Assembly (NCBI GenBank): GCA_013151735.1
Contig: JAADHR010000179.1
Location: 12,656 to 76,655 of the forward strand
Direction of reading: 5' to 3'
DNA length: 64,000 nt
Source: Calditrichota bacterium
Lineage (GTDB): Bacteria; Zhuqueibacterota; JdFR-76; BMS3Abin05
The translations under genes were made by a program, and so were the position numbers. This document shows positions 5,601 to 49,185 of the stretch, piece after piece. The notes under the pieces are model-generated. The model did no database searches and was not told the DNA's origin. It was given only the letters and a program-made list of their open reading frames with translations. Numbering within the stretch: the stretch's first letter is position 1; each line of letters begins with the position of its first letter.

Positions 5601-5994
5601 TTTTAAAAAGATTCATTTCAGAATTTCCTGCTCAGACAACATTTTCGTTCGTGTGGATCCCCACCAGATTCGGGAGGTTTTTGAAAACGTGTTTATGAAT
5701 GCCGCACAAGCAATGAATGATGGAGGGAACATCTCCCTTTCCGTTCTGCCCAGCCGGTCGTTGCAGAAGGTGACGATTATTATTTCGGATACGGGAAGCG
5801 GGATTCCTCAAAAAATAATTGACCATGTGTTTGAACCATTTTTTTCTACAAAAAACAATGGCACAGGTTTGGGATTACCCATTGTAAAGCGGATTGTGGA
5901 GGATCATTCGGGAACAATTGATATAAAAAGCGTTTCCGGAAAAGGCACCCAAGTTATTATTACGTTACCCTGGGAAGATGATCAAAAGAATTAG
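2680..5994 (+). CDS. Multi-GAF-domain sensor histidine kinase
   Basis: 1104 aa. Several GAF-like segments. HisKA H-box (LSAAIAHEIRNPLGAI) and HATPase_c G-boxes (DTGSGIP...GTGLGLPIVKRIV) at the C-terminus. Confidence 0.85.
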   Translation: MKSLEKQFIRKIQNVTFALAKVETLDEFARSLADLFVSEFGFHSCWIGLCDYARMEILPIAMSGPAQNCLSLERIRFDDSPLGRGIIGTVVREKRPQIFQNIRENKDCGFVQQEAQTIGIGSLAVFPLMTREKTIGVVLLRSRENDIFRHFERDLLEIFLGEMAVLIGNLRRMSFLEGRMREQTALNLVTQTLNSSLEKDIPVVLDEILQILTKTIPISFGTIHLIQFANDTLVLISQNNIPEAIRNRIKILPKNNGLFWDIVQKRRTAFLNHRKNPNLLMKNWLQELEAGEYAIIPIQFQNTAYGILTVGFDAISNFPESRKNFFEMLGFQIGMGLSNSENFRKASETAQQLRIAREIDTAILTSRNLEEIGVQITESLQKLIPAKQISLVTYNEKRNQFRFVASSQTHSKKETQKNRILFSPEAFEAVFKKKRIFYNTRMNPAIPEENYLYTRGTRSEVIAPLIVQENVIGSVRFASDRVSGFSQSDIQYISEMAKKVSVALSNIQLFEETQQKAKALAERSRNLENLLVLSRQLTSTFEINDIYKHVVKLAKSIFKADAATILQRNESGQFMVRATSGFPRSLVNHFKLNSQHNLSELTFRKKRIIQVYDLQKENRFRVPEIVLQKGYLSAMSAPIAIKGDTLGIMVIHSKKKRRFTREESRMFQNICNELALAVENAKTIFSLQQKMENLKDILEISSKFLVSTDLKKILGELLDIIYDRLRVNGCAISLVSDDEKSLQLMAQKIEKPLFSFGEIDSFYPLKDFVFAQKAVQERRLVYIENISDYPDLAESIRELHKKIGLVSTLDVPMIHSRRVLGILHVNQYKTARKFQSDEIEFIQTLANQAAIAILNAELLYKERKAYQELQKTQEQLIQAEKLSTIGKLSAAIAHEIRNPLGAILNSIGVLRRDVPFEGVHEELIQIVLEETDRIKQIIDEFLIFARPRKPSLQYVNLKKEIRNETAIIKKNGELFKKIHFRISCSDNIFVRVDPHQIREVFENVFMNAAQAMNDGGNISLSVLPSRSLQKVTIIISDTGSGIPQKIIDHVFEPFFSTKNNGTGLGLPIVKRIVEDHSGTIDIKSVSGKGTQVIITLPWEDDQKN

Positions 5995-6030
5995 AAATTA
6001 TTGAAACCACGGAAGGAATGAGAATAAGGA

Positions 6031-7395
6031 ATGTCGAAAGTCTTAATTATTGAAGATGAAAAAAACCTTCGCCGGAGTCTTGCCATTACACTTCAAATGG
6101 ATAATCACCACGTTATCGAAGAGGGCACGGGTGAAAAGGGAATTGAATACCTGAAAACGAATCCCGTGGATTTGGTGATAACGGATCTTCGCCTTCCCGG
6201 AATGGATGGAATAGAGGTTCTGCAGCAAATTAAGCTGATTAATCGGGACACCGAAGTCATTGTGATGACCGCATTTGGGACTATTGAAAATGCCGTCAAA
6301 GCGATGCAAATGGGGGCTTTCGATTACGTGTCGAAACCCTTTCACGAAGACGAATTTCGGGTCAAGGTTCAGCGGGCACTGGAAAAAGCGGAACTGCGGC
6401 ACAAGGTTCGGAATCTGGAAAAAATAGTTCAGCATCACATCGGTTTTCAGAATATTGTCACGGTAAGTCCGGTTATGAAAAAAATATTGTCCCAGGTCCA
6501 GGCGATTGCTCCGACCGACAGCACCATTTATATTGGGGGAGAAAGTGGTACGGGCAAGGAATTGATTGCGTCCGCCATTCACCGGTTGAGCCGCCGAAAA
6601 GATAAAGCCTTTATTCCGGTTAATTGCGGAGCTATTCCCGAAAACCTCCTGGAAAGTGAATTATTCGGTCATGTCAGGGGGGCTTTTACAGGTGCCATTT
6701 CTGATAAAAAAGGGCTTATTGAACAGGCTGATGGAGGGACGCTTTTTCTGGATGAAATAGGAGAGGCCTCGCCGGGGGTGCAGGTGCGTTTGCTTCGGTT
6801 TTTGGAAAATGGGGAAATCAGACGTGTGGGCGGCACGAGCGTGCATTATGCGGATGTCCGGTTAATAACCGCAACCAATCGTAATTTGGAAGAGGCCGTT
6901 CGAAACGGAAAATTCCGGGAGGATCTGTTCTATCGCATTCATGTGATTCCCCTTTATTTGCCTCCGCTTCGGGAACGGAAAGAAGATATTCCTGTATTGG
7001 CCCATTATTTTATGAAAAAGTACAGCAAACGCTTTCATAAGCCGCTGACGCATATCGAGGCGGATGTATTTAACGTTCTTTTGTCTCATTCCTGGAGCGG
7101 AAATGTGCGGGAATTGGAAAATGTGATGGAATATGCCTGCACCTTCGCCACATCATCCAAAATTACGGTGGAAAACTTGCCGCAAACATTGAAAAAGCCG
7201 GTTTGGCAGGAAATTGAAAAAAACGGCCGGAATAATAGAAGTCTTGAAGAAGTTGAACGGTGTTATATTTTACATGTTCTTGAAAAAAACAATTGGCATC
7301 AAAAAAAGGCCTGCCATATTTTGGGCATTTCAAAAACAACCCTGTACCGTCGCCTGAAAGAATATGGGGTCTCTCCGCAAAAATTAAAATCCTGA
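6031..7395 (+). CDS. Sigma-54-dependent response regulator (NtrC/AtoC family)
   Basis: REC domain (DLVITDLRLPGMDG), AAA+ sigma-54 activator motifs (GESGTGKELIA, GAFTGA, ESELFGH), C-terminal Fis-type HTH. Confidence 0.9.
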   Translation: MSKVLIIEDEKNLRRSLAITLQMDNHHVIEEGTGEKGIEYLKTNPVDLVITDLRLPGMDGIEVLQQIKLINRDTEVIVMTAFGTIENAVKAMQMGAFDYVSKPFHEDEFRVKVQRALEKAELRHKVRNLEKIVQHHIGFQNIVTVSPVMKKILSQVQAIAPTDSTIYIGGESGTGKELIASAIHRLSRRKDKAFIPVNCGAIPENLLESELFGHVRGAFTGAISDKKGLIEQADGGTLFLDEIGEASPGVQVRLLRFLENGEIRRVGGTSVHYADVRLITATNRNLEEAVRNGKFREDLFYRIHVIPLYLPPLRERKEDIPVLAHYFMKKYSKRFHKPLTHIEADVFNVLLSHSWSGNVRELENVMEYACTFATSSKITVENLPQTLKKPVWQEIEKNGRNNRSLEEVERCYILHVLEKNNWHQKKACHILGISKTTLYRRLKEYGVSPQKLKS

Positions 7396-14654: not shown

Positions 14655-15016
14655 AAGAATCCTCCGAAATTAATAGAATATATCAATATTAAGATAACGA
14701 AATTTCACGGCAAATGTTACAAAAAATTTCGGGTATTTCCGATCGGCCTTTAAGAGCTCTATTACGTGCCTGTCCTGTTATAACTCCCGGTCCGGCCTGT
14801 TTTTAAAATGATGCACTCTTTGGGAAAATATCACTGTAAATTCTTGAAAAGAAATAAAATGATCAGAATGAATATATGACAATTTTTTAACAAATATTGA
14901 CTTGACAGTCTGATGAAAAATGTATACATTAAATGAAATTTGATTGGGCTTTTCCTTCTTCCGGTTGGGTGTTCTTTCTGCTGAAAAAACCTTGTTTAAT
15001 CCAGGACAAAATACGC

Positions 15017-16456
15017 ATGAAAAAACTATTCTCACTGACTCTTTGGGTGATGTTTTTTTCAAATACCCTTTTTGCTCAGGGCACGAGCAGTAAAATAGAG
15101 AAATTAGTGGGCGGTCATTTCGATTTTGATGGTGAAGTGGTCAGTACCTCTTTGTCTTCTCTTCATTCCGGCCGGTTTACGCCCTCAAACAATTATCTGG
15201 CCTGGATGGATTTTTATCAAAACCCGGCCTTCTCAACGGGTATTAAAAATCCCTTTATAACCACCTTTTTTGCGCCGTCTATTGCGATTCATCCCAATCG
15301 ATTTATGGATGTGAATGGCCGCGTTCAGCGGGCAATAGACAATGGAATAGCCAGTTACCGGTCTGATTCGCTCCGATTGATTTATCCTCAACTCGAAAGT
15401 GTCTTCCGCAAGAACCGATATTGGGGACAGGGTCTCATCAGTTTTCCGGCAGGCGGCGTTGTGTTTACATTGGGCTACCAGCGTCAGCTTTCACTGAATC
15501 TTCAAACCTTTTTAACAGGGGCAGAGGCGACCATTTCCACCCAGGTGCCCCTTTCAGAAACTACAAGTGAGGTGGTTTTTAATGCCTTCCTGGATGCCAA
15601 TTTTCGGTTCAGCATAAATGTGGACAAGACCACAATGGGATTGGCGAAGGTCATTCGCAACCGGTTTGCATTTGGATTTTCTCTGGATCGGTATGGCGGG
15701 AATGTTGAAACGGTTGGATTCATGGATGCGCAGGGGGACATGCTTTTTAACGGTCACGAGTATATTTTTAATAATTCCAATGATAATTGGTACAACCGGC
15801 TGACACAGGCTATTAAAGGCCGATACAAGGGAAGCGGTTGGCGGATGAATTGGGGCGGTTGGTATGTTTATAATCGGAATTTCATTTTCGACGGCGTCAT
15901 TTCCATGCAAACCCCCATGCGCCTGGATGGAAATCTCTCTATTCACGTTAACAAAATTCCCGCACTGAACATCGACGCCCTGTCTTCGGATGATCCCAAC
16001 GCGGAAATTCTGGATCCGGCGAAGCTGGATTTGTCCCAATTAACCCTCACCGATTCCGTAGAAAATCCCACATATCCGGCCCTTTTTCTGCATCAACAAT
16101 CGTATCTGAAAGTGGGAGTTCTCTACCAAACGCCGCATTTTTATTGGTACAACAGTATGGTCCAGAATTTTGGTTACGCCGGAATAGGCTATGGACCCTA
16201 CGAATTTGGATTGCAATCAAAACTGGATTGGCAAACCCTGTTTGGATTCCATCATTTTTATATGGAAATCCGATTAAAATATATGAAGAGTTTTATTCAT
16301 CATTCGGAAAAGCTCGGAAAGGGAGAAAGCCGAATCTGGCTGCCTTCATTTGCCATGGGGTATGCCCGGCTGTTTCAAAAACATTACCCGATTCATGTCG
16401 GACTTTCCCTTTTGCCCGATCCCATTCTCTATTTTTCAACGGGCTACCAATTTTAA
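15017..16456 (+). CDS. Secreted outer-membrane beta-barrel protein, FadL/PorV-like (candidate T9SS-associated)
   Basis: Signal peptide MKKLFSLTLWVMFFSNTLFAQG. 'FYQNPAF' NPA hatch-like motif. Aromatic C-terminus ...GYQF. Sits immediately upstream of two T9SS cargo genes. Confidence 0.45.
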   Translation: MKKLFSLTLWVMFFSNTLFAQGTSSKIEKLVGGHFDFDGEVVSTSLSSLHSGRFTPSNNYLAWMDFYQNPAFSTGIKNPFITTFFAPSIAIHPNRFMDVNGRVQRAIDNGIASYRSDSLRLIYPQLESVFRKNRYWGQGLISFPAGGVVFTLGYQRQLSLNLQTFLTGAEATISTQVPLSETTSEVVFNAFLDANFRFSINVDKTTMGLAKVIRNRFAFGFSLDRYGGNVETVGFMDAQGDMLFNGHEYIFNNSNDNWYNRLTQAIKGRYKGSGWRMNWGGWYVYNRNFIFDGVISMQTPMRLDGNLSIHVNKIPALNIDALSSDDPNAEILDPAKLDLSQLTLTDSVENPTYPALFLHQQSYLKVGVLYQTPHFYWYNSMVQNFGYAGIGYGPYEFGLQSKLDWQTLFGFHHFYMEIRLKYMKSFIHHSEKLGKGESRIWLPSFAMGYARLFQKHYPIHVGLSLLPDPILYFSTGYQF

Positions 16457-16506: not shown

Positions 16507-19500
16507 ATGCAAAAAAAAGCAGTTCTAATTTGGATTGGGCTAATTGTCCTGATGTTACCCCATCAGGCTGCGGCCCAGCAAATTACACTTACAAGCGTAC
16601 CCTATCAGCTCATTAGTGAGTCCGAATCCGTTACGGTGACATGGGCAGAGCCGATTCAGGCGACACTTCATTACGGAACGACCCATGGAGTGTACAATGC
16701 CTCAATTTCAAAAAGCGGTACGCGCTCACTCACATTTACTCCGCAAAATGAAGGCATTCATCCCGGGGTTTATTATGGGATTATTACCAATGGCTCGCTG
16801 CGGTCGGCTGAGTTTCCGTTCATTGTAGAGGCATCTGTGTCTCCGATTATGCGCGAACCCACAAATAACGGAACCGTTCGGACAGCCACGCCTGAATTTC
16901 AGTGGGATGAAGTTTCCGGGGTTCCCTTTTACCACCTCATTCTTTCCGATCACGAAGCGATTATTACACGGGATCCCGATACCGGCGAGTTGCAGTTAAC
17001 CGGTGCCAATATCATCTGGCAGGTGATTACGTCTGAGACACATATTACGTATGGCGATCCCGATCCTTCCGGCTACTTTACGGATTTCAACGGGACCACT
17101 CCGCCGCTGCTCAATGGAAATCACTACACCTGGATCGTGCTGAACAACTATGGAAATAATCCGGCCTTCACATCATTGGTTCAATCAGGTGTAAGTGCGT
17201 TCTACGTTAATCTTTCCACGACAGCAGCCAAGCCCATTCTTATCTCACCGGCTGACGGAGTCTCTCTGAATTCAAAAACCATTACATTCCAATGGCAGCC
17301 TGCGTCCGGTGCGGTCAATTATCAAATTTCACTGTTTGAGTACATTTACGAAGAGGGAAGTTCCTCCAGCTTTCTCATTTGGAGCACCACCACTTCGAAT
17401 ACGTCCATTGATTTTCCGGCACGCACAGTATTAAAGGGAACGAAATACGCCTGGCGTGTACTGGCCATGGACAATTCCGGCAACGGAACGCCAAGCGACA
17501 CGCGTCAATTTTCTTACACTGTACCGGTCAGCGCATTAAGCATTCGCACCCTTCAGATGGATGGAACCAATCTTCCCCGAACCAACGTTACCTTAACGGC
17601 TATTGATGGCTCTTCGGATAACGTGTCTTTCATTACATCGGATAATGGCAATTTTACAGCTACGGTCCGGCCGGGTTCGTATGCGATTACGGGTTCAAAG
17701 GAAGGCTTTTTGGATACGACTAAAACCGTTGAGGTGGAGGCGGGGGATACCCTTTCCGTCGCATTGCGTTTAAGGAAGGCGTCCCATCGCGTAAAGGGGG
17801 TCACGCGTAACCAGGCCGATCAGCTTCTGCCGTCTGTTTCACTGCGGGCGGAAGAGAATCTTTCCGGCCGGCTTCTGGAGACCTCCTCCGACGCAAACGG
17901 GAATTTCGTACTCAGCCTTTCCAGCGGGGTCTGGGATATCTGGGGACAGAAAGAGAACTATTCCAATTCAGATACGGTTCGGGTTGTGTTATCATCTCAG
18001 GAAGAAGTAACCTTGGCTCAGCCCCTTGTTTTAAAGGAATTTGACAGTTTCATTACGGGTACGGTGGTGGATGTAAATAAACAGCCCGTTATTACGGCAC
18101 GCGTACAGGCACAGAAGGATGCACGGGTTGTTTCTCAGTTTACGGCCAATAATGGATCTTTTCGCTTGCAGGTGAGCAGCGGCAAGTGGACGGTGACGGT
18201 TACAAAGGGAGGCTATGTGAGCCCGGCGCCCCGAATTGTCCAGGTGACGCCCGGAGCGACAATAAATCTGACTCCCGACCTGGAGCTCACGTCCAATGCC
18301 GGGGTTTTGACCGGCTTTGTTTTCAGCGGACAGAACTCCGTAAATGGGGCGGAAGTGAAGGCCATCCCTCCGTCAGGACAGCCGGTTTCTTTTTTAACCG
18401 ATCCCAAGGGAGCGTATGCGTTGAATCTGGCTCCCGGGAATTATACCGTCACCGTTTCCAAGCAGGGGTACGCACCACCTGACCCGCTGCAGGTATCTCT
18501 GCACTCCGGTGAAACCCTTTCCAACCTGAATTTTAATCTTCGGGTAAATCCCGTTTTTATCTCCGGAAAAGCCGCCTCAGGCGGAAAACCCCTTGAAGGG
18601 GTGATCATTCAGACAGACGGGGCAAACGACACGACTCTTTCTGACGGGTCTTACCGCCTTTGGGTTCAACCCGGGACGTACCGAATAACGGCATCCAAAA
18701 CGGGATATGCGGCAACGGGAATTCAAACCGTAACCATTGCCCTGGGTGAAAATAAGACAGGGGTCAATTTTACACTTGTGCCCAATGTTGGAACGATTAA
18801 GGGACGTGTTCAACAGGGGAATTTGCCCATTGTGGGGGCAGCCGTTTTGGCCTATTCCGGAACGGATACATTTCGCACGCTGCCCGGAAATGTGGGACAA
18901 TACACCCTTTCGGTAAAACCCGGCACCTGGACAATCCGGGCTGAAAAGGAAGGCTTTGTTCCCGCCCAATTGAATACGCCCGTGCAATCCGGTCAAACCG
19001 TTACGGGTGTGGATTTCAATCTTACACTCAACTTGGGCACGATTTCCGGAAAAATCACGGACAATCATGGACGGGCGGTTGAAAATGCATGGGTCGATGT
19101 GATTGGAGAAAATCTCCAATCGGTGTCTGATCTGAATGGAAATTACACCATTCAGCTGGAACCGGGACCTTACCAGCTAAAGGCATGGAAACCGGGGTTT
19201 AGCAGCCAGACGACGTCCGTTACGGCAGTACTTAATTCAACAATTACGAAGAATTTTTCCCTGACCACCATGGGAACGTTGACCGGAAAAATAACGGACA
19301 GTTCCACGGGTCTGCCCATCAATAAGGCGGCCGTGTGGGTGATCCTGGGAGCCGACACGACGCAAACGGAAACGGATTACACGGGCGAATACACCTTTTT
19401 TCTCAATTCGGGGACGTACACCCTGGTCGCCGATCAATTGGGATATCACCGAAAGCAGCTCAGTGTGTCGCTTGCGGCAGGTGCCGTCAAAATCCAAAAT

Positions 19501-20712
19501 ATGGCGCTTCAGCCGGATCCCACGGAAATAGCCCGGATTCAGGGCAAAATTCTGGATGATTTTCACAAACCTATGGTGGGTGTTCCAATTTCACTCTCCG
19601 GTGGGAAGGTGGATATCATTTACACGGAAACGGATGGAACGTACGATATCAAGAAACTGCAAACCGGTTTGGATTACACCCTGCGTCCCAAACTGCCGGG
19701 CTTTTTCTTCGTTCCGTCCAAAAGACGCTTTGCTCCTCTGATCGCCAACAAAACCGGCCAGGATTTTGCCGGAGCTCTGTACGGAGATGTGAGCGGCAAC
19801 AAAGAGGTCAGTTCATTTGACGGGTCGCTTATCCTTAGAATCAGCGCTCAGCAAAATGTGGCCCCGTATTATCGAAATCAGCCGAGGGATTCCATCGCGG
19901 CCGACGTCAGCGGTAACGGACAGGTGAGTTCCTTCGATGCATCGCTTATTTTTCGCTATTCGGTCAATCTGATTGATCGCTTTCCTGTGGAACCGTCCCG
20001 ACTGGGAAAAGGGCTCGAAAATTATTCTGATCCGGAGGTTCACGTGTTTACATTTGCGGTGAAACATCTGGATGAAACCCGTTGGGCTGTTGATATTCAA
20101 GCGGATAATCTGAATCATATTTACGCCACGCAATGGAAAATTGAGGTCGATCGGCAGTGGGTAAATGTACAGAATTGTGTCTTGTTCCGCTCCTCGGAAG
20201 GCCATGCTCTGGCCTGGTCGGAGAAAAATGGTGTGCTTACCATTGCAACGGCGGGCCCTGAAGCGCTGGAGGGCTCCGGAAAACTGCTTCGCATTTTGAT
20301 TGAGGTGAAGGGGGATCCGTCCATTTCCCCCGAAACCTTTTTGGAGGTGAGGCAGGTGCAGGTGAATGAGGGGCTGGTTGTGTCAGAATTTCAGCCGCCT
20401 GAACGGACCCGGCTTCCAACGCAATTTCGTTTGTATGATAATTATCCCAATCCCTTCAACGGTGAAACCCTGATTCGGTTTGCGGTTCCGTCAGAAGACC
20501 ATGTACAAGGGGTTTCAGTCGATTTGTCCGTTTACAATGTGCTGGGACAAAAGGTGCGGCAGCTTGTGCAAAAAAAACTGGCACCCGGCTATTATCAGTT
20601 CAAATGGAACGGAACGGACGAATCGGGCAATCAGGTTCCGGGCGGGGTCTATTTTTATCGATTAAAGGCCAAAAATCGGGTTTATGTGAAAAAGCTTTTA
20701 CTTTTGAAATAG
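16507..20712 (+). CDS. Giant T9SS cargo protein: FN3-like and about 9 carboxypeptidase-regulatory-like (CarbopepD_reg) repeats, a type-I dockerin pair, a cohesin-like module and a T9SS C-terminal sorting domain
   Basis: Signal peptide. Repeated roughly 80-aa G.V.D..G.P...A.V...TD.dG.F units. Dockerin pair DVSGNKEVSSFDGSLILRIS / DVSGNGQVSSFDASLIFRYS. C-terminal YPNPFNGETLIRFAVP...GVYFYRLKA (T9SS type-A CTD). Confidence 0.8.
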   Translation: MQKKAVLIWIGLIVLMLPHQAAAQQITLTSVPYQLISESESVTVTWAEPIQATLHYGTTHGVYNASISKSGTRSLTFTPQNEGIHPGVYYGIITNGSLRSAEFPFIVEASVSPIMREPTNNGTVRTATPEFQWDEVSGVPFYHLILSDHEAIITRDPDTGELQLTGANIIWQVITSETHITYGDPDPSGYFTDFNGTTPPLLNGNHYTWIVLNNYGNNPAFTSLVQSGVSAFYVNLSTTAAKPILISPADGVSLNSKTITFQWQPASGAVNYQISLFEYIYEEGSSSSFLIWSTTTSNTSIDFPARTVLKGTKYAWRVLAMDNSGNGTPSDTRQFSYTVPVSALSIRTLQMDGTNLPRTNVTLTAIDGSSDNVSFITSDNGNFTATVRPGSYAITGSKEGFLDTTKTVEVEAGDTLSVALRLRKASHRVKGVTRNQADQLLPSVSLRAEENLSGRLLETSSDANGNFVLSLSSGVWDIWGQKENYSNSDTVRVVLSSQEEVTLAQPLVLKEFDSFITGTVVDVNKQPVITARVQAQKDARVVSQFTANNGSFRLQVSSGKWTVTVTKGGYVSPAPRIVQVTPGATINLTPDLELTSNAGVLTGFVFSGQNSVNGAEVKAIPPSGQPVSFLTDPKGAYALNLAPGNYTVTVSKQGYAPPDPLQVSLHSGETLSNLNFNLRVNPVFISGKAASGGKPLEGVIIQTDGANDTTLSDGSYRLWVQPGTYRITASKTGYAATGIQTVTIALGENKTGVNFTLVPNVGTIKGRVQQGNLPIVGAAVLAYSGTDTFRTLPGNVGQYTLSVKPGTWTIRAEKEGFVPAQLNTPVQSGQTVTGVDFNLTLNLGTISGKITDNHGRAVENAWVDVIGENLQSVSDLNGNYTIQLEPGPYQLKAWKPGFSSQTTSVTAVLNSTITKNFSLTTMGTLTGKITDSSTGLPINKAAVWVILGADTTQTETDYTGEYTFFLNSGTYTLVADQLGYHRKQLSVSLAAGAVKIQNMALQPDPTEIARIQGKILDDFHKPMVGVPISLSGGKVDIIYTETDGTYDIKKLQTGLDYTLRPKLPGFFFVPSKRRFAPLIANKTGQDFAGALYGDVSGNKEVSSFDGSLILRISAQQNVAPYYRNQPRDSIAADVSGNGQVSSFDASLIFRYSVNLIDRFPVEPSRLGKGLENYSDPEVHVFTFAVKHLDETRWAVDIQADNLNHIYATQWKIEVDRQWVNVQNCVLFRSSEGHALAWSEKNGVLTIATAGPEALEGSGKLLRILIEVKGDPSISPETFLEVRQVQVNEGLVVSEFQPPERTRLPTQFRLYDNYPNPFNGETLIRFAVPSEDHVQGVSVDLSVYNVLGQKVRQLVQKKLAPGYYQFKWNGTDESGNQVPGGVYFYRLKAKNRVYVKKLLLLK
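19777..19990 (+). other. Dockerin type-I module (two Ca-binding repeats) inside the 1401-aa protein
   Basis: Both repeats match D-V-[NS]-G-[DN]-G-x-V-[NS]-S-x-D-x-x-L-[IL]-x-R-[YI]. They are separated by a linker of about 25 aa. Confidence 0.7.
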
Positions 20713-20715
20713 GTT

Positions 20716-23700
20716 GTGTCTATGAAACGTTTATGCGTGTTTTTTTGGGGAGCACTACTTTTTGCCACGACGGCCTATGCTCAAACCGTTACGGTCTCGG
20801 TGCCGGATATTCAGCAGTCGGAAGGAAAAACATTCCGGTTGCCGGTGAAGGTGTCTGACCTTTCCGGGTTAAATATTTACTCATTCGATTTAACGCTGGT
20901 TTATGATCCCGGTGTTTTAACGGCTCTGGATGCCCGAACGTCGGGTTCCCTTTCGGCCTCCTGGGGGCCGGCCACAAAAAACATCACCAGCGGGCAAATT
21001 CAGGTGGGTATTGGGGGAACGAATGCCTTGTCGGGTGCCGGGGATTTGATTTACCTTATTTTTAAGGTCAATAATGGGGTGTCTGTCGGCAAAACGTCCA
21101 TATTGACATTTACAAACTTTAAATTCAATGAGGGGTCTCCATCTGTCCAATTAAACAATGGAACATTTACGGTTATTTTGGATACCGAGCCCCCAAAGAT
21201 CACATCGGGCCCGCAGGCAGTCAATCTTACAGCGCATTCGGCCGACATTCACTGGCGAACGGATGAACCCGCCGACAGCAAGGTGGAATACGGACTCACC
21301 TCTTCGTACGGAGACGTGTTGGAAAATTCCTCCTTGGTTACGTCCCATTCGGTAACGCTTCATCCACTCAAACCTTCGACTACCTACCATTACCGGGTTG
21401 CATCCAAAGACAAATTGGGGAACGGCCCAACGGTTTCTTCGGATCAAACCTTTACAACGGCCGCTATTATTGCCCGTTTGCCTTCGCTTTCCCTGGATCC
21501 GGGGGCGGACATTATTTTCCCTCTGACCGTGACGGATGTTTCGGAGCAGGGGATTACGTCTGCAGAAATCGTCGTCACCTACGACGCCGGACTTTTATCT
21601 CCGACAGGCGTCAGTTCGGACGGCACCCTTATTTCCGCATGGAATTCTCCGGCATTTCAGGTGGAATCCGGAAAAATCACCATTACCCTTTCCGGTACGA
21701 CACCTTTGAGCGGGTCGGGGATTTTGGTCAACATACAGTTTCACATTTCAGACGCGGCGAAAATCGGGCAAACCACGCCCCTTACATTTCAGAAATTTAT
21801 GTTGAAAAACAGCGGGGGCGAAACCATACCTGCCACCACCCAGAACGGGCGGTTTACCGTAGAGGATACGCGTCCTCCGGAAATTGTGTCGGGTCCGCAG
21901 GTGGAATCCATCACTGCCAAAAGTGCCGTAGTCACCTGGCAGACCAATGAAAAAAGTACCAGTATTGTGCGATATGGGCGCGATACATCGTATGGATGGC
22001 AGAAAAAGAATCAGACGCGTACCCTTCAGCATTCCGTTCTGTTGTCCAATCTTTCACCGTCTACGACGTACCATTTTCAGGTGGGCTCAGTGGATTCCAG
22101 CGGGAACGGTCCCACATTCAGCCAGGATGCCACTTTCAGCACGGAAGCCGGAACCGGAATTATTTTAACGGCGGAAAATGTCACGGGACAGGCGGGAAAT
22201 GATGTCACCGTGCCGCTCCGGGTGACGGATGTAAGCCAGCAGGGCGTCAGACGCTACACCGTTGTACTGACCTACGATTCGGAGCTGATCACGGCGGTTT
22301 CGGCTCAAACGTCCGGTACTTTAACGTCCGGTTGGGGCGCTCCGGTTTTTCAAAAAGTGGATGGACAGGTGGTTATCCAGGGACAATCCGGTACGCCCCT
22401 TGCCGGAGCGGGAGTACTGGTGAAGGTGATTTTTCACGTCAAATCGGACGTAACCGACGGCGTAACCACTCCTATTTCCTTTGTCTTTGCCCAATTCAAT
22501 ACGGGGATGCCTGAATTGACCACCGCGAACGGGTTGCTTACCCTTCGCGGAACCCCCGACAGCCAGGCACCGCAGATCACGTTTGGACCCTTTGCACAAA
22601 ATATCTCGGCAACCGGGGCACAAATCGTTTGGGTTACGGACGAGCCTTCTTCCGGGATTGTGGAATTCGGAACGGGGACCTCCTACGGACAAACGGCGGG
22701 GGGGGCAGCTGTTTTTGAACGGATTCACCGGATCACCCTGTCGGGGCTGCTTCCGGGCACCCGCTACCATTTTCGGGTCAAATCATCGGATCGCTGGGGA
22801 AACGGACCCACTGTCAGCCCGGATGCTTCTTTCCAGACCACCAATGGAGGGGAAGTACAGGTCTCTCTTCCCAACCGGACCATTCGTGCCGGAACACAAT
22901 TCGACTGGCCCATTCAAATCGGGGACGTTTCCGGAAAGTCCGTTTATTCGGCCGACATCACGGTGACTTTTGATCCCGACGTGCTCACGGCCATTTCGGC
23001 CTCTACGTCGGGGACACGGGCCAGCAGTTGGGGGCCTCCCACCACAACCGTGAAAAGGGGCAAAATAATTATTGCGATGGGAGGAATTAGTGCCCTTAGC
23101 GGCAGTGGCAGCCTGGTCAAAATCCGCTTTCAGGTATCCGGATCCGCAAAGGAAGGAACCCAGGCACCGGTTGTTTTTCAGCGGTTCGTTTTTAATGAAG
23201 GAACACCGGCTTCTGTTTACAGGGGGGGACTGTTTACGGTCAAGGATGTGACGGCACCGAAAATTACAGCGGGACCCTCCGTGGTGGCAAAAACGGCGTC
23301 TACGGCCACTATTTTGTGGGCAACGAATGAAGCGTCTACCGGGAGGATTGACTACGGTGAGACCGCTTCTTACGGCCAGATGGAAGAAAGCGGCATTCTC
23401 GAAAAAAGTCACCTGGCGGTCATAACCGGATTGTATTCGGGGACAACCTACCATTTTCGTGTCTCATCAACGGATGCCAGTGGAAACGGGCCCACACAAA
23501 GCGCCGACCAGACCTTTCAAACGGTGGTTGAACAGCCCATGATTTTCCGGCTGCCTTCCGTGGCCTACGATGTGGGACACACATTTGATTTACCCGTTCG
23601 ATTGGACAGCCTTGGAAATGGCAGTCTGTATTCCTTCAAAATGACCCTGAAGTTTGATTCCCGTTATCTCGAGGCAACAGGGGTGAAAACTGCAGGAAGT

Positions 23701-26700
23701 TTGACCGAGTTCTGGGAAGCGCCCGTGGTGAGTGTCGGCCCGGATTCGGTTTCCATTGAAATGCGTTCCAACAATCCGATCCACGAAAACGGCGTTCTTT
23801 TTAAGGTACAATTTCGGGTTAAAACCGGTGGAGCTTACAATTACCCGACTCCTCTGACTTTGCAGAATGTTTCTGCAAATGGCCTTTCTTCGGGCTTCGT
23901 TATTCGGGAGGGCCGCTTTACGCTTCGCGATCTGACGCCTCCGGAAATCTTGACGGGTCCCAATTCCACCGAGGTTCGGGCTCATTCGGTTCACATTGTC
24001 TGGACAACAAACGAGCCGTCCAACAGTAAAGTGGATTACGGAGTGACTTCCACGTATGACAAGGCTGTTGAAAGCGAGGACCTGGTAACCTACCACGATC
24101 TGGCGGTTGCCGGACTCAATCCAAACACGACGTATCATTTTCGTGTCAGTTCAACCGATTCTGTGGGCAATGGGCCGGTTCAAAGCACCGATCAAACCTT
24201 TACCACGACGTCTGGAAATGAGGTGGTGGTTTCCATTCCCGACACCCTGGCCCCTGTGGGGCAGACCATCTGGTACCCGGTTTCTGTTGAAGATGTCACC
24301 GGAAAGAACATCACCCGCTACCATTTCATCCTAAAATACGATTCTTCGGCGGTTCGCGCGCTTCAGGTGAGAAAAACCGGAACGCTTTCAGCATCCTGGG
24401 GTACGCCCACCGTTGGGATAACCGACACATCTATTACAGTGGATCACACCGGAAATGCCCCTCTTTCGGGCAGCGGAGATTTGATTCAGATTCAATTTAA
24501 GATTAAGGCCACGGCCGGAGTGGGCCGGGATGTGGGACTGATTTTTCAAGAGTTTACCTTTAATACCGGAGATCCGCCGGCTTCCCCCAACAGCGCACGA
24601 TGGCTTTTGGTTGACCGCACCCCGCCTGAGTTTGTGGGAACGCCAAAGGTCACAGATGTGGGGTTTAATTATGCGACCCTATTCTGGAAAACCAATGAAT
24701 TAACGACAGGCAAAATTGATTACGGCACAACACCCAGTTACGGAAAACAACTCAAAGAAACGAAAATAGACACCGTTCACCGGATCACGATAGAGAATTT
24801 GACCGCTCTTACAACCTATCATTTCAGGGTGTCTGTCACGGATACGGCAGGGAACGGGCCGGTTTTGAGCAAGGATCTAAGCTTCACCACATTGTCCGAC
24901 ACGGTTTTTGTTACCGTCCCCGACACAACGGTCCCCATGGGCAGTACGTTTGAATTGCCGCTGGTCGTAACCAATCTGACGGGATTTGGAATCACCCGTT
25001 TTGCCATTGAGATTGCCTACAATCCCGATCAGATTACGGCGTTGGGGGCGTCTTCCAGGGGGACACTTGCTCAGGATTGGGGTGTGCCTGCTTTTTCCGC
25101 TTCCGATCATGTGCTTCACGTGGAAATGTCCGGGACAGAGCCGCTCAAAGGAACCGGTGTTTTAATCCGGCTGAAATTCCAATTATTGGGTGGTGTGGTG
25201 CCCGGCACGGATCTGGAAATTCCGTTTCAATCGTTTCAGTTTAATAACGGAACGCCGGTTGTAAAGACCACACCGGCAAAAATCCACGCCATTGCGGGGG
25301 GGAGCGGAATTGAGGTTTCCCTGCCGGATACCAGTTTTTTACCCGGCAAAAGCGTGCGGATCCCGGTCAGGGTAGGAGATCTAACTCAGAAAGGAATATT
25401 CTCATTTAACGGGAAATTGGTTTTTTCTCATTCGGTTCTCAAAATAAGCGGCGCCACCACCCAAAAGTCCCTGCTGGAAGCCTGGAAGACAATTGATGCG
25501 TCTGTTTACCCGGACAGCGTCATTTTTTCGGCGCAGGGGACAAAGGCTCTTTCGGACTCCGGTGTCTTATTTTATTTTGAGGGGACAACCAATTCTCAGG
25601 CCAATGAAGGCGATACGAGTTCCCTCATTTTGGAGCGGTTTACCTTTAATCGCGGAAACCCTGTGGCTCAGGTGAAAAACGGGAGAGTGCGAATTGTTAT
25701 CCGTCACGATGCCATTTCGGGCCTTGTTTTTGAGTCGGACAGCGTAACGGTTTTACCGGGCGCGACAATTTCTGCCCGGGAAACGGGAACCCAAACCGTA
25801 AAAACGGCCCGGTCGGACACAACGGGATTTTTTCAGATTCGCGGTCTGGATTCAACCCGAACCTATGACGTGTTTGCTTCCAAAGCGGGTTACACCCCCT
25901 CGGACATTTTGAGGAAAATCAAGCCCGGGGCCCGAAATCTGAAATTGTACCTTGAAAAACAAAACGGGTTTATTGACGGCTGGGTTAAGGCGAATACGGG
26001 TGAACCGGTGGTGGGGGCTCTTGTCGTGGCAGACGACGGACACACGCACTTCGGTTCGGGGAATACGGACTCTACCGGCCACTTTGCCATCAACAATCTG
26101 GCAAAACGGTACGCGTACACAGTGAAGATTACAAAATATGGTTTTCACGATAAAATTATTTCCAATGTTGCCGTCAATCAAACGGTTTCCGTTACACTGG
26201 ATTGGTTTTACGGCCGGGTTTTGGGAATGGTTAGAGACACGACCCGGGCACCCATGGATAGTGTGTGGGTACAGGCATTGAATCTGAAAAAGGGAACGCG
26301 AGTGGACAGCTTCTTAACCGGAAAAGACGGCCGCTACCAACTGGACAGCCTGAAAGCCGACCAATATTTGGTTTACGCTCTTCGTAACGGATTTGTCAGT
26401 ACGCCCAACCAGGTCACGGTTAACCTGGCACCCGGAGATACCGTAACGGAAGATTTTATCCTGGAAAAGGCTGTTTTGGCCTCGATTGAAATCTCGGGCG
26501 ACCGGGAGATTCCCAATAATGTTCCTTCCCGTTTCGATTTTGTGGCCAAGACGGCCGGCGGAAAGGTCATGGGCCTGCAATCGCCCGTCTGGAAACTCTG
26601 GCCGGAGGCCGCGGGGGTTGTCAGTCAGGGGGTGGTGTACCCGGATTCTCAGTATTTTGGGGAGGCTTTTCTGTCCGTAATGGACCCGTTTACCGGAATT

Positions 26701-27447
26701 GCAGATACACTGGCCATTTCTCTGTATGCTCCGGTGAGCCCTTCTTCGCAGCTCACCGTTAAAAATGCAGACGGCGTAACCCTGGCCATTGCGGCGGGAT
26801 CCGTAGACCAGCCTCAAAAAATAAAAATTCAAGCCATCTCGCTTCCATCCGTAAAGAAGAGTACAAAGCGGTACGCGGCTTTGGGGAAAGGTTATCTGCT
26901 GAAACCGGGAGGCTTTCATTTTCTAAAGCCCCTCCAATTAACTCTGCCGGTTCCGGAGGGATTTGTTCCGAAGCGCACGCGCATCGGCAAATGGAATCAG
27001 GAATTGGCCCGATGGGACATTCTGGAAACCCGGGTAACCGGAGAGCGTGCGATTACGGCCGATGTGGAATCCTTTTCGCTTCTGGCCGTTCTTAACCCGG
27101 CACGTGATCTCGGAATGGAATCGCTCAAATTGATCCCGAATCCCTTTTCGCCTGTGGTGGATTCGGATGGGGATGGCAGTCCCGGCCTGACCATTCAGTT
27201 TTTAATTACCTCACGGGACACGCGGCGTCCCTTTGTGACCATTGAGATTTACAGCATGGTCGGCCAGAAGGTGCGAACCCTGTTGGATGACCAGCCGGAA
27301 AATAAGGACCAGTATTTGCGCTTTCACTGGGATGGGCTGACCGATGATGGCCGAATGGCCCGAAACGGGCGCTATCTGATAAAAATTGACGTATCGGATG
27401 CAACCGGTACAAAAACAACCCTTAAAACCGTGGTTCTGGTGAAATAA
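20716..27447 (+). CDS. Giant scaffoldin-like T9SS cargo protein: 8 cohesin-like modules (7 of them each followed by an FN3/PAP-N-like module), CarbopepD_reg-like repeats, T9SS C-terminal sorting domain
   Basis: Each cohesin-like module starts with an (V/I)x(V/L)S(L/V)PD... motif and has ...GSGxLIxIxFKV... in its C-terminal half. FN3-like modules ...P(P/K)ITSGP...W(T/R)T(D/N)EP...YG.T.SYG...TYH(Y/F)RV.S.D..GNGP. C-terminal LKLIPNPFSP...IEIYSMVGQKVRTL...GRYLIKIDV CTD. Confidence 0.8.
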   Translation: MSMKRLCVFFWGALLFATTAYAQTVTVSVPDIQQSEGKTFRLPVKVSDLSGLNIYSFDLTLVYDPGVLTALDARTSGSLSASWGPATKNITSGQIQVGIGGTNALSGAGDLIYLIFKVNNGVSVGKTSILTFTNFKFNEGSPSVQLNNGTFTVILDTEPPKITSGPQAVNLTAHSADIHWRTDEPADSKVEYGLTSSYGDVLENSSLVTSHSVTLHPLKPSTTYHYRVASKDKLGNGPTVSSDQTFTTAAIIARLPSLSLDPGADIIFPLTVTDVSEQGITSAEIVVTYDAGLLSPTGVSSDGTLISAWNSPAFQVESGKITITLSGTTPLSGSGILVNIQFHISDAAKIGQTTPLTFQKFMLKNSGGETIPATTQNGRFTVEDTRPPEIVSGPQVESITAKSAVVTWQTNEKSTSIVRYGRDTSYGWQKKNQTRTLQHSVLLSNLSPSTTYHFQVGSVDSSGNGPTFSQDATFSTEAGTGIILTAENVTGQAGNDVTVPLRVTDVSQQGVRRYTVVLTYDSELITAVSAQTSGTLTSGWGAPVFQKVDGQVVIQGQSGTPLAGAGVLVKVIFHVKSDVTDGVTTPISFVFAQFNTGMPELTTANGLLTLRGTPDSQAPQITFGPFAQNISATGAQIVWVTDEPSSGIVEFGTGTSYGQTAGGAAVFERIHRITLSGLLPGTRYHFRVKSSDRWGNGPTVSPDASFQTTNGGEVQVSLPNRTIRAGTQFDWPIQIGDVSGKSVYSADITVTFDPDVLTAISASTSGTRASSWGPPTTTVKRGKIIIAMGGISALSGSGSLVKIRFQVSGSAKEGTQAPVVFQRFVFNEGTPASVYRGGLFTVKDVTAPKITAGPSVVAKTASTATILWATNEASTGRIDYGETASYGQMEESGILEKSHLAVITGLYSGTTYHFRVSSTDASGNGPTQSADQTFQTVVEQPMIFRLPSVAYDVGHTFDLPVRLDSLGNGSLYSFKMTLKFDSRYLEATGVKTAGSLTEFWEAPVVSVGPDSVSIEMRSNNPIHENGVLFKVQFRVKTGGAYNYPTPLTLQNVSANGLSSGFVIREGRFTLRDLTPPEILTGPNSTEVRAHSVHIVWTTNEPSNSKVDYGVTSTYDKAVESEDLVTYHDLAVAGLNPNTTYHFRVSSTDSVGNGPVQSTDQTFTTTSGNEVVVSIPDTLAPVGQTIWYPVSVEDVTGKNITRYHFILKYDSSAVRALQVRKTGTLSASWGTPTVGITDTSITVDHTGNAPLSGSGDLIQIQFKIKATAGVGRDVGLIFQEFTFNTGDPPASPNSARWLLVDRTPPEFVGTPKVTDVGFNYATLFWKTNELTTGKIDYGTTPSYGKQLKETKIDTVHRITIENLTALTTYHFRVSVTDTAGNGPVLSKDLSFTTLSDTVFVTVPDTTVPMGSTFELPLVVTNLTGFGITRFAIEIAYNPDQITALGASSRGTLAQDWGVPAFSASDHVLHVEMSGTEPLKGTGVLIRLKFQLLGGVVPGTDLEIPFQSFQFNNGTPVVKTTPAKIHAIAGGSGIEVSLPDTSFLPGKSVRIPVRVGDLTQKGIFSFNGKLVFSHSVLKISGATTQKSLLEAWKTIDASVYPDSVIFSAQGTKALSDSGVLFYFEGTTNSQANEGDTSSLILERFTFNRGNPVAQVKNGRVRIVIRHDAISGLVFESDSVTVLPGATISARETGTQTVKTARSDTTGFFQIRGLDSTRTYDVFASKAGYTPSDILRKIKPGARNLKLYLEKQNGFIDGWVKANTGEPVVGALVVADDGHTHFGSGNTDSTGHFAINNLAKRYAYTVKITKYGFHDKIISNVAVNQTVSVTLDWFYGRVLGMVRDTTRAPMDSVWVQALNLKKGTRVDSFLTGKDGRYQLDSLKADQYLVYALRNGFVSTPNQVTVNLAPGDTVTEDFILEKAVLASIEISGDREIPNNVPSRFDFVAKTAGGKVMGLQSPVWKLWPEAAGVVSQGVVYPDSQYFGEAFLSVMDPFTGIADTLAISLYAPVSPSSQLTVKNADGVTLAIAAGSVDQPQKIKIQAISLPSVKKSTKRYAALGKGYLLKPGGFHFLKPLQLTLPVPEGFVPKRTRIGKWNQELARWDILETRVTGERAITADVESFSLLAVLNPARDLGMESLKLIPNPFSPVVDSDGDGSPGLTIQFLITSRDTRRPFVTIEIYSMVGQKVRTLLDDQPENKDQYLRFHWDGLTDDGRMARNGRYLIKIDVSDATGTKTTLKTVVLVK
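20785..25700 (+). repeat. Tandem coding repeats: cohesin + FN3 modules with a period of about 680-695 bp (x7), then a cohesin-only unit
   Basis: Module starts at about 20785, 21463, 22154, 22850, 23538, 24221, 24901 and 25306. Similarity is at protein level, so the repeats are diverged rather than identical. Confidence 0.6.
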
Positions 27448-27449
27448 AA

Positions 27450-28385
27450 ATGAAAAAACGAACGCTTGTAATTTTCGTGTGGCTGCTGCTGGGTGTGGGG
27501 GTGACGACCGTCCGGGCTCAGGACTTGGCCGGTATCCCTGCTGCTTTTGTGGACATCGGATTTGGGGCCCGGCCCTTGGGTATGTCCGGCGCGTATTCCG
27601 CCGCAAGTAACGGGGTGGAATCGCTTCTCTGGAATCCGGCCGGACTGGCGGGAGTCCCTTTTGTTCAGGGAACATTCAGCACCACCCGGCAGCTGGGACT
27701 TATCCCTTATCAAATGGCGGCGGCCGCCTTTCGCTTCGGGCTGAATTTTGTTCATTCCGAAGGAATCATCCTTTCGGGCGACGACGCCATGCGGGAATTT
27801 ACATTTCTGGTGGGGTTGAGCTACGAAAAACGGTGGGAAACCGGGTCTTGGGTCAGAGGCGGGGCGACGATCAGCTACCGCAATGCCAGCTTTGGGAAAA
27901 ATGCCGCTCAGAACGAGGGAGCAGTCACCGGAAGCGCATCGGGATTTTCCATGGATTGGGGCGTTCAGTACTCCCCGGCGAAACACTACGTTCTGGCGGC
28001 CGTCCTGAAAAATATGGTAAATTATCTGCAATGGAACAGCTCCACTCTCGGAAAATACAGCGAGGGTACACCCAGGCAATTGGTTTTTGGTCTCGCTGCA
28101 TTGGACATTTTGAAATTTAATTTTGATTTGGATTTCGAGAAAGCTCTCTACCAAGACGTTGCAGACCGCTTTTCTTTTGGGATGGAACGCCCGATTTACA
28201 AATACTTTTTTCTGAGAGGCGGCATTTCACGGGGATTGGTTCCCTCGGATTTCTTATCGACGGCCGTTGGCGGGGGACTTCGGTATCGGTTTCCTCAGGG
28301 GTTTATCCTGTATCTGGATGGAGCGTATATTTTTCAGGATTTAAACAACAATTTCCGGCTGTCGGTTTCTTTCGATCTGGAATGA
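27450..28385 (+). CDS. Small outer-membrane beta-barrel, FadL/PorV-like (NPA hatch motif); candidate T9SS cargo-shuttle/anchor partner
   Basis: Signal peptide MKKRTLVIFVWLLLGVGVTTVRAQ. ...GMSGAYSAASNGVESLLWNPAGLAG resembles the FadL-family N-terminal hatch. Starts 3 nt after the scaffoldin stop. Confidence 0.45.
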   Translation: MKKRTLVIFVWLLLGVGVTTVRAQDLAGIPAAFVDIGFGARPLGMSGAYSAASNGVESLLWNPAGLAGVPFVQGTFSTTRQLGLIPYQMAAAAFRFGLNFVHSEGIILSGDDAMREFTFLVGLSYEKRWETGSWVRGGATISYRNASFGKNAAQNEGAVTGSASGFSMDWGVQYSPAKHYVLAAVLKNMVNYLQWNSSTLGKYSEGTPRQLVFGLAALDILKFNFDLDFEKALYQDVADRFSFGMERPIYKYFFLRGGISRGLVPSDFLSTAVGGGLRYRFPQGFILYLDGAYIFQDLNNNFRLSVSFDLE

Positions 28386-35427: not shown

Positions 35428-35684
35428 CGTGTTTGTCCTTTCCTTATTTGGAAATCCTGGTCATTTAACAAACTACACCAATGTAAAAAACAACCGGTTT
35501 AAATTCAAGCAAAATCCACTTGGCGAACTGCCAACGGCTAATTTGAAACAGACCCATGAAATTTGCGTAGATTAGGACAAACTTGAAAAGGATTCCCATT
35601 TGGGCTGATTTGAAATGACCCGAGGGCACTTTTCTTTTCACCGCGTCCGGTTTGTCGGAGTCAATTTTAGAAAGGAGGAATGGC

Positions 35685-49164: not shown

Positions 49165-49185
49165 ATAAAGGAGGTGAGTGTAGTT

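Follow-up and report, generated by a model that had tools for sequence, protein, structure and literature searches.

A 64,000-nt stretch of the genome of an uncultured, sediment-type Calditrichota bacterium (contig JAADHR010000179.1), the whole of which is called the window here, carries on its forward strand a locus whose two central genes, P1 and P2, encode large proteins equipped with dockerin and cohesin modules. Cohesin-dockerin pairs are among the strongest non-covalent protein connectors and have been studied mainly in the cellulosomes of Gram-positive bacteria. Together with an orphan gene, OrfA, and a gene resembling the PorV/PorQ family, P1 and P2 form one tight predicted operon of four genes, with same-strand gaps of 50 nt between OrfA and P1, 9 nt between the P1 stop codon and the P2 ATG, and 2 nt between P2 and the last gene. 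P1 and P2 share a reading frame, and the gene downstream of the operon is convergent. All operon features described below lie on the forward (+) strand, and cohesins were found in the window only on P1 and P2.

P1 is the product of the open reading frame (ORF) at 16507-20712, which is confirmed to be a real gene encoding 1401 amino acids (aa); an exact look-up of P1 in public assemblies found no entry. According to Pfam and NCBIfam matches and profile comparisons, it consists of a Sec-type signal peptide (judged by eye), a fibronectin type III (FN3)-like head, a series of CarboxypepD_reg repeats, a dockerin, a divergent cohesin and a type A C-terminal sorting domain (CTD) of a type IX secretion system (T9SS). 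The head (16576-17526; aa 24-340) contains about three FN3/Ig-like modules with weak Pfam matches to fn3, Ig_Rha78A_N and Tissue_fac, and a sequence search for its relatives returned a single weak and uninformative match. The stalk (17527-19761; aa 341-1085) is built of about 9-10 CarboxypepD_reg or transthyretin-like beta-sandwich repeats, which Pfam detects as nine stretches of PF13620 (E 7.8e-91) and seven of PF13715, close to the nine or so repeats counted in an earlier, sequence-only reading of this DNA. Neither a catalytic domain nor a carbohydrate-binding module (CBM) was found by Pfam on P1 or P2. This agrees with the statement of that reading that P1 has no enzymatic domain, and it fits its suggestion that the assembly is structural or adhesive rather than cellulolytic.

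The dockerin of P1 (19777-19989; aa 1091-1161) comprises two repeats of a calcium loop and a helix (19786-19845 and 19903-19962), in which the loop ligands are D1, S3, N5 and D12. S3 and N5 in place of the usual N3 and D5 are still compatible with EF-hand ligands. The sequence-only reading had named a dockerin here and a search with Dockerin_1 (PF00404) as the way to check it; this search gives 24.4 bits (E 3.5e-5) over aa 1092-1151, above the gathering cut-off of 22.9 and thus significant, and the C-terminal fragment of P1 alone reaches 26.5 bits (E 7.5e-6). Both repeats that it pointed out are present, at aa 1094-1113 and 1133-1152, and are identical in 15 of 20 residues, although the segments it quoted as 22 residues are 20 residues long. 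The module is organised in tandem segments of about 22 residues, each with a 12-residue EF-hand-like calcium loop followed by a helix, and its predicted fold is that of a dockerin. A profile of the family alignment A1, composed of P1 and 29 relatives (30 sequences), matches solved dockerins at profile positions 8-78, with E values down to 2e-16. Across 127 family members, D12 of the loop is conserved in 100% and D1 in 85-87%, and the sequence logo also displays S/T3 and N/D5 as well as conserved Y...FP residues at both ends of the dockerin. These ends resemble the N/C-terminal clasp of type I dockerins. P1 is the sole dockerin-bearing ORF in the 64-kb window, no other dockerins were found in the flanks of related loci, and the dockerin subtype PRDSxAADVSGN was found only in P1 orthologues.

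The module that follows the dockerin (20041-20406; aa 1179-1300) is a divergent cohesin, for which the Pfam cohesin model PF00963 gives no match within its curated cut-off, nor any at E<=10 when the module is searched alone. A hidden Markov model (HMM) built from the eight cohesins of P2 matches aa 1236-1293 of P1, and a cohesin-like block, ...GSGKLLRILIEVKGDP..., is found at aa 1256. When the P2 cohesins (alignment A4) were compared with A1, hhalign gave 98.8% and E 9.6e-17 over 120 columns, corresponding to aa ~1180-1300 of P1. Positions ~88-198 of the A1 profile match solved cohesins, namely that of Archaeoglobus fulgidus (2xdh, 3.8e-11), OlpA (3ul4_A, 2.3e-6) and Clostridium perfringens NagJ; the source protein of 2xdh presumably also bears a dockerin. 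When P1 aa 1082-1401 served as the query, many proteins were returned that align with ~97% of it and bear PF00404 and PF00963 together with PF18962/PF13860. The module is predicted to adopt the complete beta-sandwich fold of a cohesin with a predicted local distance difference test (pLDDT) score of 92-98, and it has the (A/G)G...GxG...NE motifs in common with the P2 cohesins, while only a few positions of the fold type, the A of AxAG and (N/D)E, are kept across orthologues. By the P2-cohesin HMM, hhalign, the family profile and the fold, the cohesin-like module of the sequence-only reading was therefore called correctly, Pfam giving no match. An AlphaFold2 model of the dockerin and cohesin of P1 (231 residues, about 40 of them of low confidence, with a floppy linker) has a predicted template modelling score (pTM) of 0.85.

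P1 ends in a T9SS type A CTD (20425-20709; aa 1307-1401) with matches to PF18962 and PF13860. Over aa 1313-1398 it scores 32.2 bits against TIGR04183, for which the cut-off is 23, as expected from the T9SS CTD already proposed for P1. P2, the next gene downstream (20722-27447; ORF from 20716), encodes a scaffoldin-like protein of ~2241 aa counted from the ATG at 20722, in which a signal peptide is followed by six cohesin-FN3 pairs, two further cohesins, three CarboxypepD_reg domains and a divergent C-terminal FlgD_ig/CTD-like domain. The eight cohesins that had been assigned to this neighbour are recovered as eight stretches of PF00963 (E 1.7e-85). They span 20779-25704, with cohesins 1-4 at 20779-21183, 21457-21867, 22153-22548 and 22846-23247, and cohesins 5-8 at 23530-23931, 24214-24615, 24895-25293 and 25300-25704. 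Among solved structures they come closest to type I cohesins (3ul4_A, E 5e-10; also 5nrk_A and 1ohz_A), and no dockerin was found on P2. The CTD-like domain of P2 (27181-27417) obtains 14.9 bits with TIGR04183, below the cut-off of 23, and 36.7 bits with the family CTD HMM, and is 28% identical to the CTD of P1 (E 1e-9). The six FN3 modules after cohesins 1-6 score best against Pur_ac_phosph_N (PF16656, E 1.1e-45), and the region at aa ~1931-2150 of P2, between the CarboxypepD_reg domains and the CTD, is without a domain match.

The two outer genes of the operon encode putative outer-membrane barrels. OrfA (15017-16456), the first gene, encodes a protein of ~479 aa with a signal peptide and a predicted 14-stranded outer-membrane beta-barrel like those of FadL, PorV and BamG, ending in ...GYQF. 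It belongs to a lineage-restricted orphan family with 12 relatives and no Pfam match. The ORF is listed from 14933, a start that is probably incorrect, since the signal peptide of OrfA, MKKLFSLTLWVMFFSNTLFAQ, begins at the ATG at 15017. A sigma-70-like promoter match, TTGACA-17-TACATT, lies upstream of the operon at 14902-14930 (+) and agrees with the consensus in 10 of 12 positions; it is a consensus match only, and its location likewise argues for a start at 15017 rather than 14933. The last gene (27450-28385), which starts 2 nt past the P2 stop codon, encodes a protein of 311 aa with a signal peptide that is best called a distant relative of the PorV/PorQ family: it matches NF033709 with 47.7 bits (E 1.5e-12), short of the cut-off of 90, in an alignment that runs through profile positions 5-326 of 326. 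This protein may act as a dedicated anchor or shuttle for P2, whose CTD is atypical. OrfA and the PorV/PorQ-like protein were also considered as recent paralogues, which was rejected because no sequence similarity is detectable between them.

A genome scan with a four-sequence alignment of close relatives (A2) located 12 loci in metagenome-assembled genomes (MAGs) labelled "candidate division KSB1", "uncultured Deferribacteres", "uncultured Cytophagia" and "Bacterium BMS3Bbin03". At nine of them (L001-L004 and L006-L010), P1 is directly followed by a cohesin-bearing ORF, with cassette identities of 34-78%; the identity of the dockerin-cohesin region among loci goes down to 34-38%. Six of these nine loci have a complete P2 with 7-8 cohesins, at two (L007 and L008) P2 is cut by the contig end, and at L002 it is split. 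The P2 orthologue of L002 (4084-10808) appears as two overlapping ORFs of 993 and 1248 aa with the break inside cohesin 5, which is due either to a frameshift or to misassembly of that MAG. The complete set of four genes, unchanged in order and of similar size, is present at L001, L002, L003, L004 and L006, all of which have an ORF of ~310-360 aa at the position of the PorV/PorQ-like gene.

The domains of P1 and P2 differ strongly in how well they are conserved in the orthologues. The dockerin is the most conserved part of P1, with 96/91/93% identity to the close orthologues (L001/L002/L003) and 67-78% to the distant ones, followed by the head (89/80/72% and 47-49%). The values are 53-82% and 28-40% for the repeats and 83/68/62% and 32-36% for the CTD, and P1's own cohesin is the least conserved domain of the whole operon (66/59/46% and 12-21%). 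The helix segments of the dockerin, SSFDGSL(I/V)LRI and SSFDASLIFR(Y/F), are near-invariant in ten orthologues, and so is the PRDS motif between its repeats. Among the P2 cohesins, cohesins 1 and 4 are the most conserved in distant orthologues, with 40-48% identity compared with 17-32% for the remaining ones. A mirror-tree analysis of 127 cassettes gave a partial r of 0.27 for dockerin and cohesin versus 0.49 for cohesin and CTD, values in which shared history dominates. The conservation of the individual domains is what one would expect of a dockerin under constraint from a conserved set of partners, and it is at odds with a cis cohesin evolving in close step with that dockerin. The view of P1 and P2 as a cognate pair gains indirect support from the synteny at nine loci, from the presence of a single dockerin in the window and its private subtype, and from the fact that this dockerin is the best-conserved part of P1.

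The tail of P1 is also found far beyond this operon. When 1.84 billion cluster representatives (50%-identity clusters) were searched with the A1 profile, there were 44,048 matches at E<=1e-3 and 1,644 clusters at E<=1e-30, and architectures were counted on the best 150 family representatives. Among these, a dockerin is directly followed by a cohesin in 105, and 86 of these run on into a CTD. The commonest architectures are Coh-Doc-Coh-CTD (58 of the 150) and Doc-Coh-CTD (24 of the 150), where Coh and Doc stand for cohesin and dockerin. The linkers within the cassette are short and fairly constant, while the N-terminal parts are diverse and range from 2 to 1668 aa. Pfam domains on the relatives include beta-helix, FG-GAP, Laminin_G_3, PKD and CarboxypepD_reg, and their source names include Bacteroidetes, Ignavibacteria(les), Zixibacteria and Poribacteria MAGs. 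Judging by these matches, a Doc-Coh-CTD tail, often in the form Coh-Doc-Coh-CTD, recurs on many otherwise unrelated T9SS cargo proteins in MAGs of the Fibrobacterota-Chlorobiota-Bacteroidota (FCB) group. One unrelated genome (L014) has a beta-helix-Doc-Coh-CTD gene followed by a gene for a T9SS protein with three cohesins, and another locus (L013) has a cassette gene without a nearby scaffoldin. The cassette is apparently undescribed: neither Doc-Coh-CTD nor Coh-Doc-Coh-CTD was found as a recurrent cargo cassette in the literature on dockerins and cohesins with T9SS, of which our coverage was incomplete.

Several variations of the cassette were observed among its relatives. In the Coh-Doc-Coh-CTD proteins (P0154-P0229 and others), a weaker-scoring cohesin lies about 10 residues ahead of the dockerin. 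P1 is without such an upstream cohesin and has a CarboxypepD_reg-like domain at that position. The homologues P0011, P0014, P0028, P0037, P0038 and P0073 contain a long insert after the dockerin, with a third calcium-loop-like motif, (I/V)(I/V)YGDVSGNW, before the cohesin.

The binding, export route, anchoring and biological role that follow are inferences from what is shown above, namely which domains are present, how they are predicted to fold, and the structure of the operon with its synteny and its pattern of conservation. The reading that we favour, and to which we would give about an even chance, is that of a non-enzymatic, T9SS-exported surface assembly in which the dockerin of P1 plugs into the cohesins of P2. 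The operon would build this assembly on the outside of a Gram-negative bacterium of the FCB group, represented by KSB1-like MAGs. All four products are predicted to have Sec signal peptides, and P1 and P2 would be T9SS cargo. P2 would serve as the scaffoldin-like component displaying eight cohesins, and P1 as an elongated rod that is made of beta-sandwich repeats and bears an FN3-like head, so that up to eight P1 rods could be attached per P2 through the calcium-type dockerin. The two FadL/PorV-like barrels at the ends of the operon might be dedicated outer-membrane shuttles or anchors for both cargo proteins, a role that would parallel that of the cargo-linked PorP/SprF and of PorV/PorQ in Bacteroidota. 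The product would be a fibrillar coat or an adhesin, with the conserved FN3-like head of P1 as its putative working end. P1's own cohesin, possibly a remnant of the widespread Doc-Coh-CTD cassette, may be an extra socket, in which case each docked P1 would regenerate a docking site and allow chaining; more generally, it may extend chains, cap its own dockerin or act as a buttress. An adaptor role of P1, which the sequence-only reading had raised, depends on this cohesin, which is only 12-21% identical in distant orthologues, and is not established.

Several observations weigh against such a P1-P2 assembly. The core genes of the T9SS are not in the 64-kb window, where only the PorV/PorQ-like gene is present, and both this protein and the CTD of P2 score under the curated cut-offs. 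The geometry is not obviously favourable either: if both proteins are tethered at their C-termini, the dockerin of P1 would be membrane-proximal, while the cohesins of P2 would lie ~580 residues from its C-terminus. The use of P1's own cohesin as a socket is doubtful, this module being the fastest-evolving one in the operon. Finally, the pTM of 0.85 was obtained despite the floppy linker and therefore suggests, by arithmetic on the pTM alone, that the dockerin is confidently placed relative to its own cohesin; it may thus pack on that cohesin and be masked, or the two may form one rigid unit.

The main alternative, which we consider a real possibility but well short of probable, is that the cassette is self-complementary and that the P1 dockerin binds the adjacent cohesin, in cis or in trans. 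Bound in cis, the dockerin would be hidden in a closed clasp, for instance while it crosses the periplasm ahead of export by the T9SS; bound in trans, P1, or any cargo bearing the cassette, would polymerise head to tail. The P2 cohesins would then serve dockerins encoded elsewhere or compete with the cis cohesin after export. The recurrence of Doc-Coh-CTD and Coh-Doc-Coh-CTD as an evolutionary unit, with steady short linkers behind varied N-termini, speaks for this, and so do the cassette genes without an adjoining scaffoldin, such as that of L013, the presumed dockerin on the source protein of 2xdh, and the confident fixed arrangement implied by the pTM, although the predicted packing may involve a face other than the canonical one for binding. 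On the other hand, the cohesin falls to 12-21% identity where the dockerin holds 67-78%, and the mirror-tree values reveal no special co-variation between the two modules. Moreover, the eight-cohesin protein that is strictly kept beside P1 would then lack an obvious partner. The same rigid two-domain arrangement would also suit a cohesin-fold module that is not a socket at all and that instead stabilises the dockerin, like the X module of type II/III X-dockerin dyads, or spaces it from the site of CTD cleavage or attachment. Binding would then be by the dockerin only, and P1 would be a plain cargo of P2 and not an adaptor. The invisibility of the module to the Pfam cohesin model and its low conservation, with few fold-type positions kept, are in line with such a buttress or spacer, but the confidently predicted complete cohesin fold, the motifs in common with the bona fide cohesins of P2, and the many relatives in which the equivalent module passes the Pfam cohesin model make it rather unlikely.

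A true polysaccharide-degrading cellulosome, in which P2 recruits dockerin-bearing glycoside hydrolases (GHs) or proteases encoded elsewhere and P1 is one of many partners, is highly improbable. Dockerin-bearing chitinase-, amylase- and peptidase-like enzymes are encoded in Cloacimonadota MAGs with a T9SS-CTD scaffoldin (PMC8542988), and several peptidase genes (M1, S9 and S49) are located in the window. Nevertheless, no further dockerin was found on the ORFs of the 64-kb window or beside the related loci, the P1 type of dockerin is seen only on P1 orthologues, P2 has no CBM and P1 no catalytic domain. A cellulosome at this locus was consequently rejected on the lack of enzymes and CBMs, even though a multi-cohesin scaffoldin, with eight cohesins, is present. 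The P1/P2 pair would work like a scaffoldin/adaptor pair and yet is not a cellulosome.

A broader proposal, extending the P1-P2 assembly to the relatives of the cassette, is that (Coh-)Doc-Coh-CTD is a general surface-retention and self-assembly cassette of FCB-group T9SS cargo; we put it forward tentatively, as an idea that is unlikely to hold. The dockerin of the cargo would plug into a cell-bound cohesin, either on an anchor scaffoldin of the P2 type held by a dedicated PorV-like barrel or on another cargo protein. Each cargo would offer one (Doc-Coh) or two (Coh-Doc-Coh) new cohesins, so that open-ended chains or branches could grow from few anchors. The cis cohesin may cap the dockerin in the periplasm and block assembly before translocation.

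The arrangement of P1 and P2 resembles that of clostridial and ruminococcal scaffoldins with their adaptors, such as ScaB/ScaC of A. cellulolyticus and ScaA/ScaB of R. flavefaciens, in which a multi-cohesin protein also adjoins a protein with a dockerin and a cohesin. The cohesins of P2 are nearest to the type I cohesins 3ul4_A, 5nrk_A and 1ohz_A, the best matches of the P1-family dockerin profile include the dockerin of the ScaB adaptor (4uyp_B, E 2.7e-15), and the dockerin of P1 has two near-symmetric repeats, like dockerins with a dual binding mode. In contrast to these systems, the host of P1 and P2 is Gram-negative, enzymes and CBMs are absent, and T9SS CTDs replace S-layer homology (SLH) or sortase motifs. 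The calcium loops of P1 read D-x-S-x-N...D instead of D-x-N-x-D...D, its modules follow the order Doc-Coh-CTD at the C-terminus, and its cohesin is too divergent for Pfam.

Non-cellulosomal cohesin and dockerin modules are well known (Peer et al. 2009, as cited in PMC8542988 and PMC9012536). One of the closest systems is that of the Cloacimonadota 'Ca. Stygibacter', for which a cellulosome-like system with a T9SS-CTD scaffoldin and dockerin-bearing partners has been inferred (PMC8542988). It has in common with P1 and P2 its origin in an FCB-group MAG, a large non-catalytic scaffoldin with tandem cohesins, a surface CTD and dockerin partners, and both systems were inferred from sequence only (PMC8542988). 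The 'Ca. Stygibacter' dockerins are described there on enzymes (GH18, GH57, S8 and C25) and its scaffoldin with CBM2/CBM3 (PMC8542988), whereas here the sole partner found is a non-enzymatic rod and P2 has FN3 modules and no CBM. The passages of PMC8542988 on dockerins, cohesins and T9SS mention neither a Doc-Coh-CTD cassette nor an operon with PorV-like barrels.

In archaea, the scaffoldin-like proteins of anaerobic methanotrophs (ANME) have one dockerin and up to five cohesins per chain (PMC9012536). Together with the A. fulgidus protein (2XDH), they are similar to P1 and P2 in using cohesins and dockerins outside plant cell wall degradation, and of the solved structures it is the A. fulgidus cohesin that the cassette cohesin profile matches best (E 3.8e-11). 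The archaeal proteins belong to a surface-layer context, as opposed to a bacterial outer membrane with T9SS, have no fixed Doc-Coh-CTD tail, and no conserved partner operon has been reported for them. Another example comes from Chlorobiota, where Cag_2037 and Cag_2038 are adjacent cohesin and dockerin genes on Ig-repeat filaments (bioRxiv 10.64898/2026.03.19.712371). They too encode neighbouring long beta-sandwich-repeat proteins of the FCB group, one with a C-terminal dockerin and one with a cohesin, whose pairing has been proposed for surface display or adhesion. They differ in having one cohesin where P2 has eight, and export by a type I secretion system (T1SS) is proposed for the cohesin protein, which contains an alginate epimerase/lyase-like enzyme and RTX domains; there is no cohesin beside the dockerin.

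T9SS cargo with genetically linked shuttles or anchors of the PorP/SprF type has also been described (PMC9143113, PMC12618676). As in those cases and in the PorU-PorV/PorZ-PorQ attachment complex, the cargo genes of the operon adjoin genes for outer-membrane barrels of a FadL/PorV-like fold, and by this analogy the two barrels could be cognate shuttles or anchors. Unlike in the PorP/SprF-linked systems, neither barrel is identified as PorP/SprF by Pfam or NCBIfam, OrfA belongs to an orphan family, and the CTDs are type A-like and not type B. Within the literature, covered incompletely, we found no description of a four-gene operon with two FadL/PorV-like barrels or of a purely non-enzymatic eight-cohesin system in KSB1-like bacteria. 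What appears novel is the conserved operon and the widespread cassette, while the concept of non-cellulosomal cohesin-dockerin pairs is not new.

Outside the operon, the window contains several other genes. At 31895-33139 lies a gene for a full-length bacterial serpin (PF00079, E 1e-119), and near it a gene of the S9 prolyl-oligopeptidase family (33358-35427, -) and one for an S49/SppA-like peptidase (35652-38111). A molybdopterin oxidoreductase with a twin-arginine translocation (TAT) signal is encoded at 49174-51546, and a 672-aa fusion of a multihaem cytochrome c (c7/c3/MtrC-like) with a cytochrome b561-type membrane domain at 58777-60795; by their predicted domains, the two suggest anaerobic respiration or extracellular electron transfer. 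The region at 2680-7395 encodes a histidine kinase of 1104 aa with five GAF domains, adjoining a sigma-54-dependent response regulator.

The locus joins cohesin/dockerin connectors to type IX secretion, without enzymes and with two outer-membrane barrels, in uncultured FCB-group bacteria, and it draws attention to a large family of T9SS cargo with a Doc-Coh-CTD tail in common. If this tail retains or chains its cargo, it would be a source of new orthogonal connector pairs for protein engineering. It would also represent a second route, besides linkage to anionic lipopolysaccharide (A-LPS) and PorP-type anchors, by which T9SS cargo is kept on the cell surface, and would help to explain the surface coats of phyla without cultured members.

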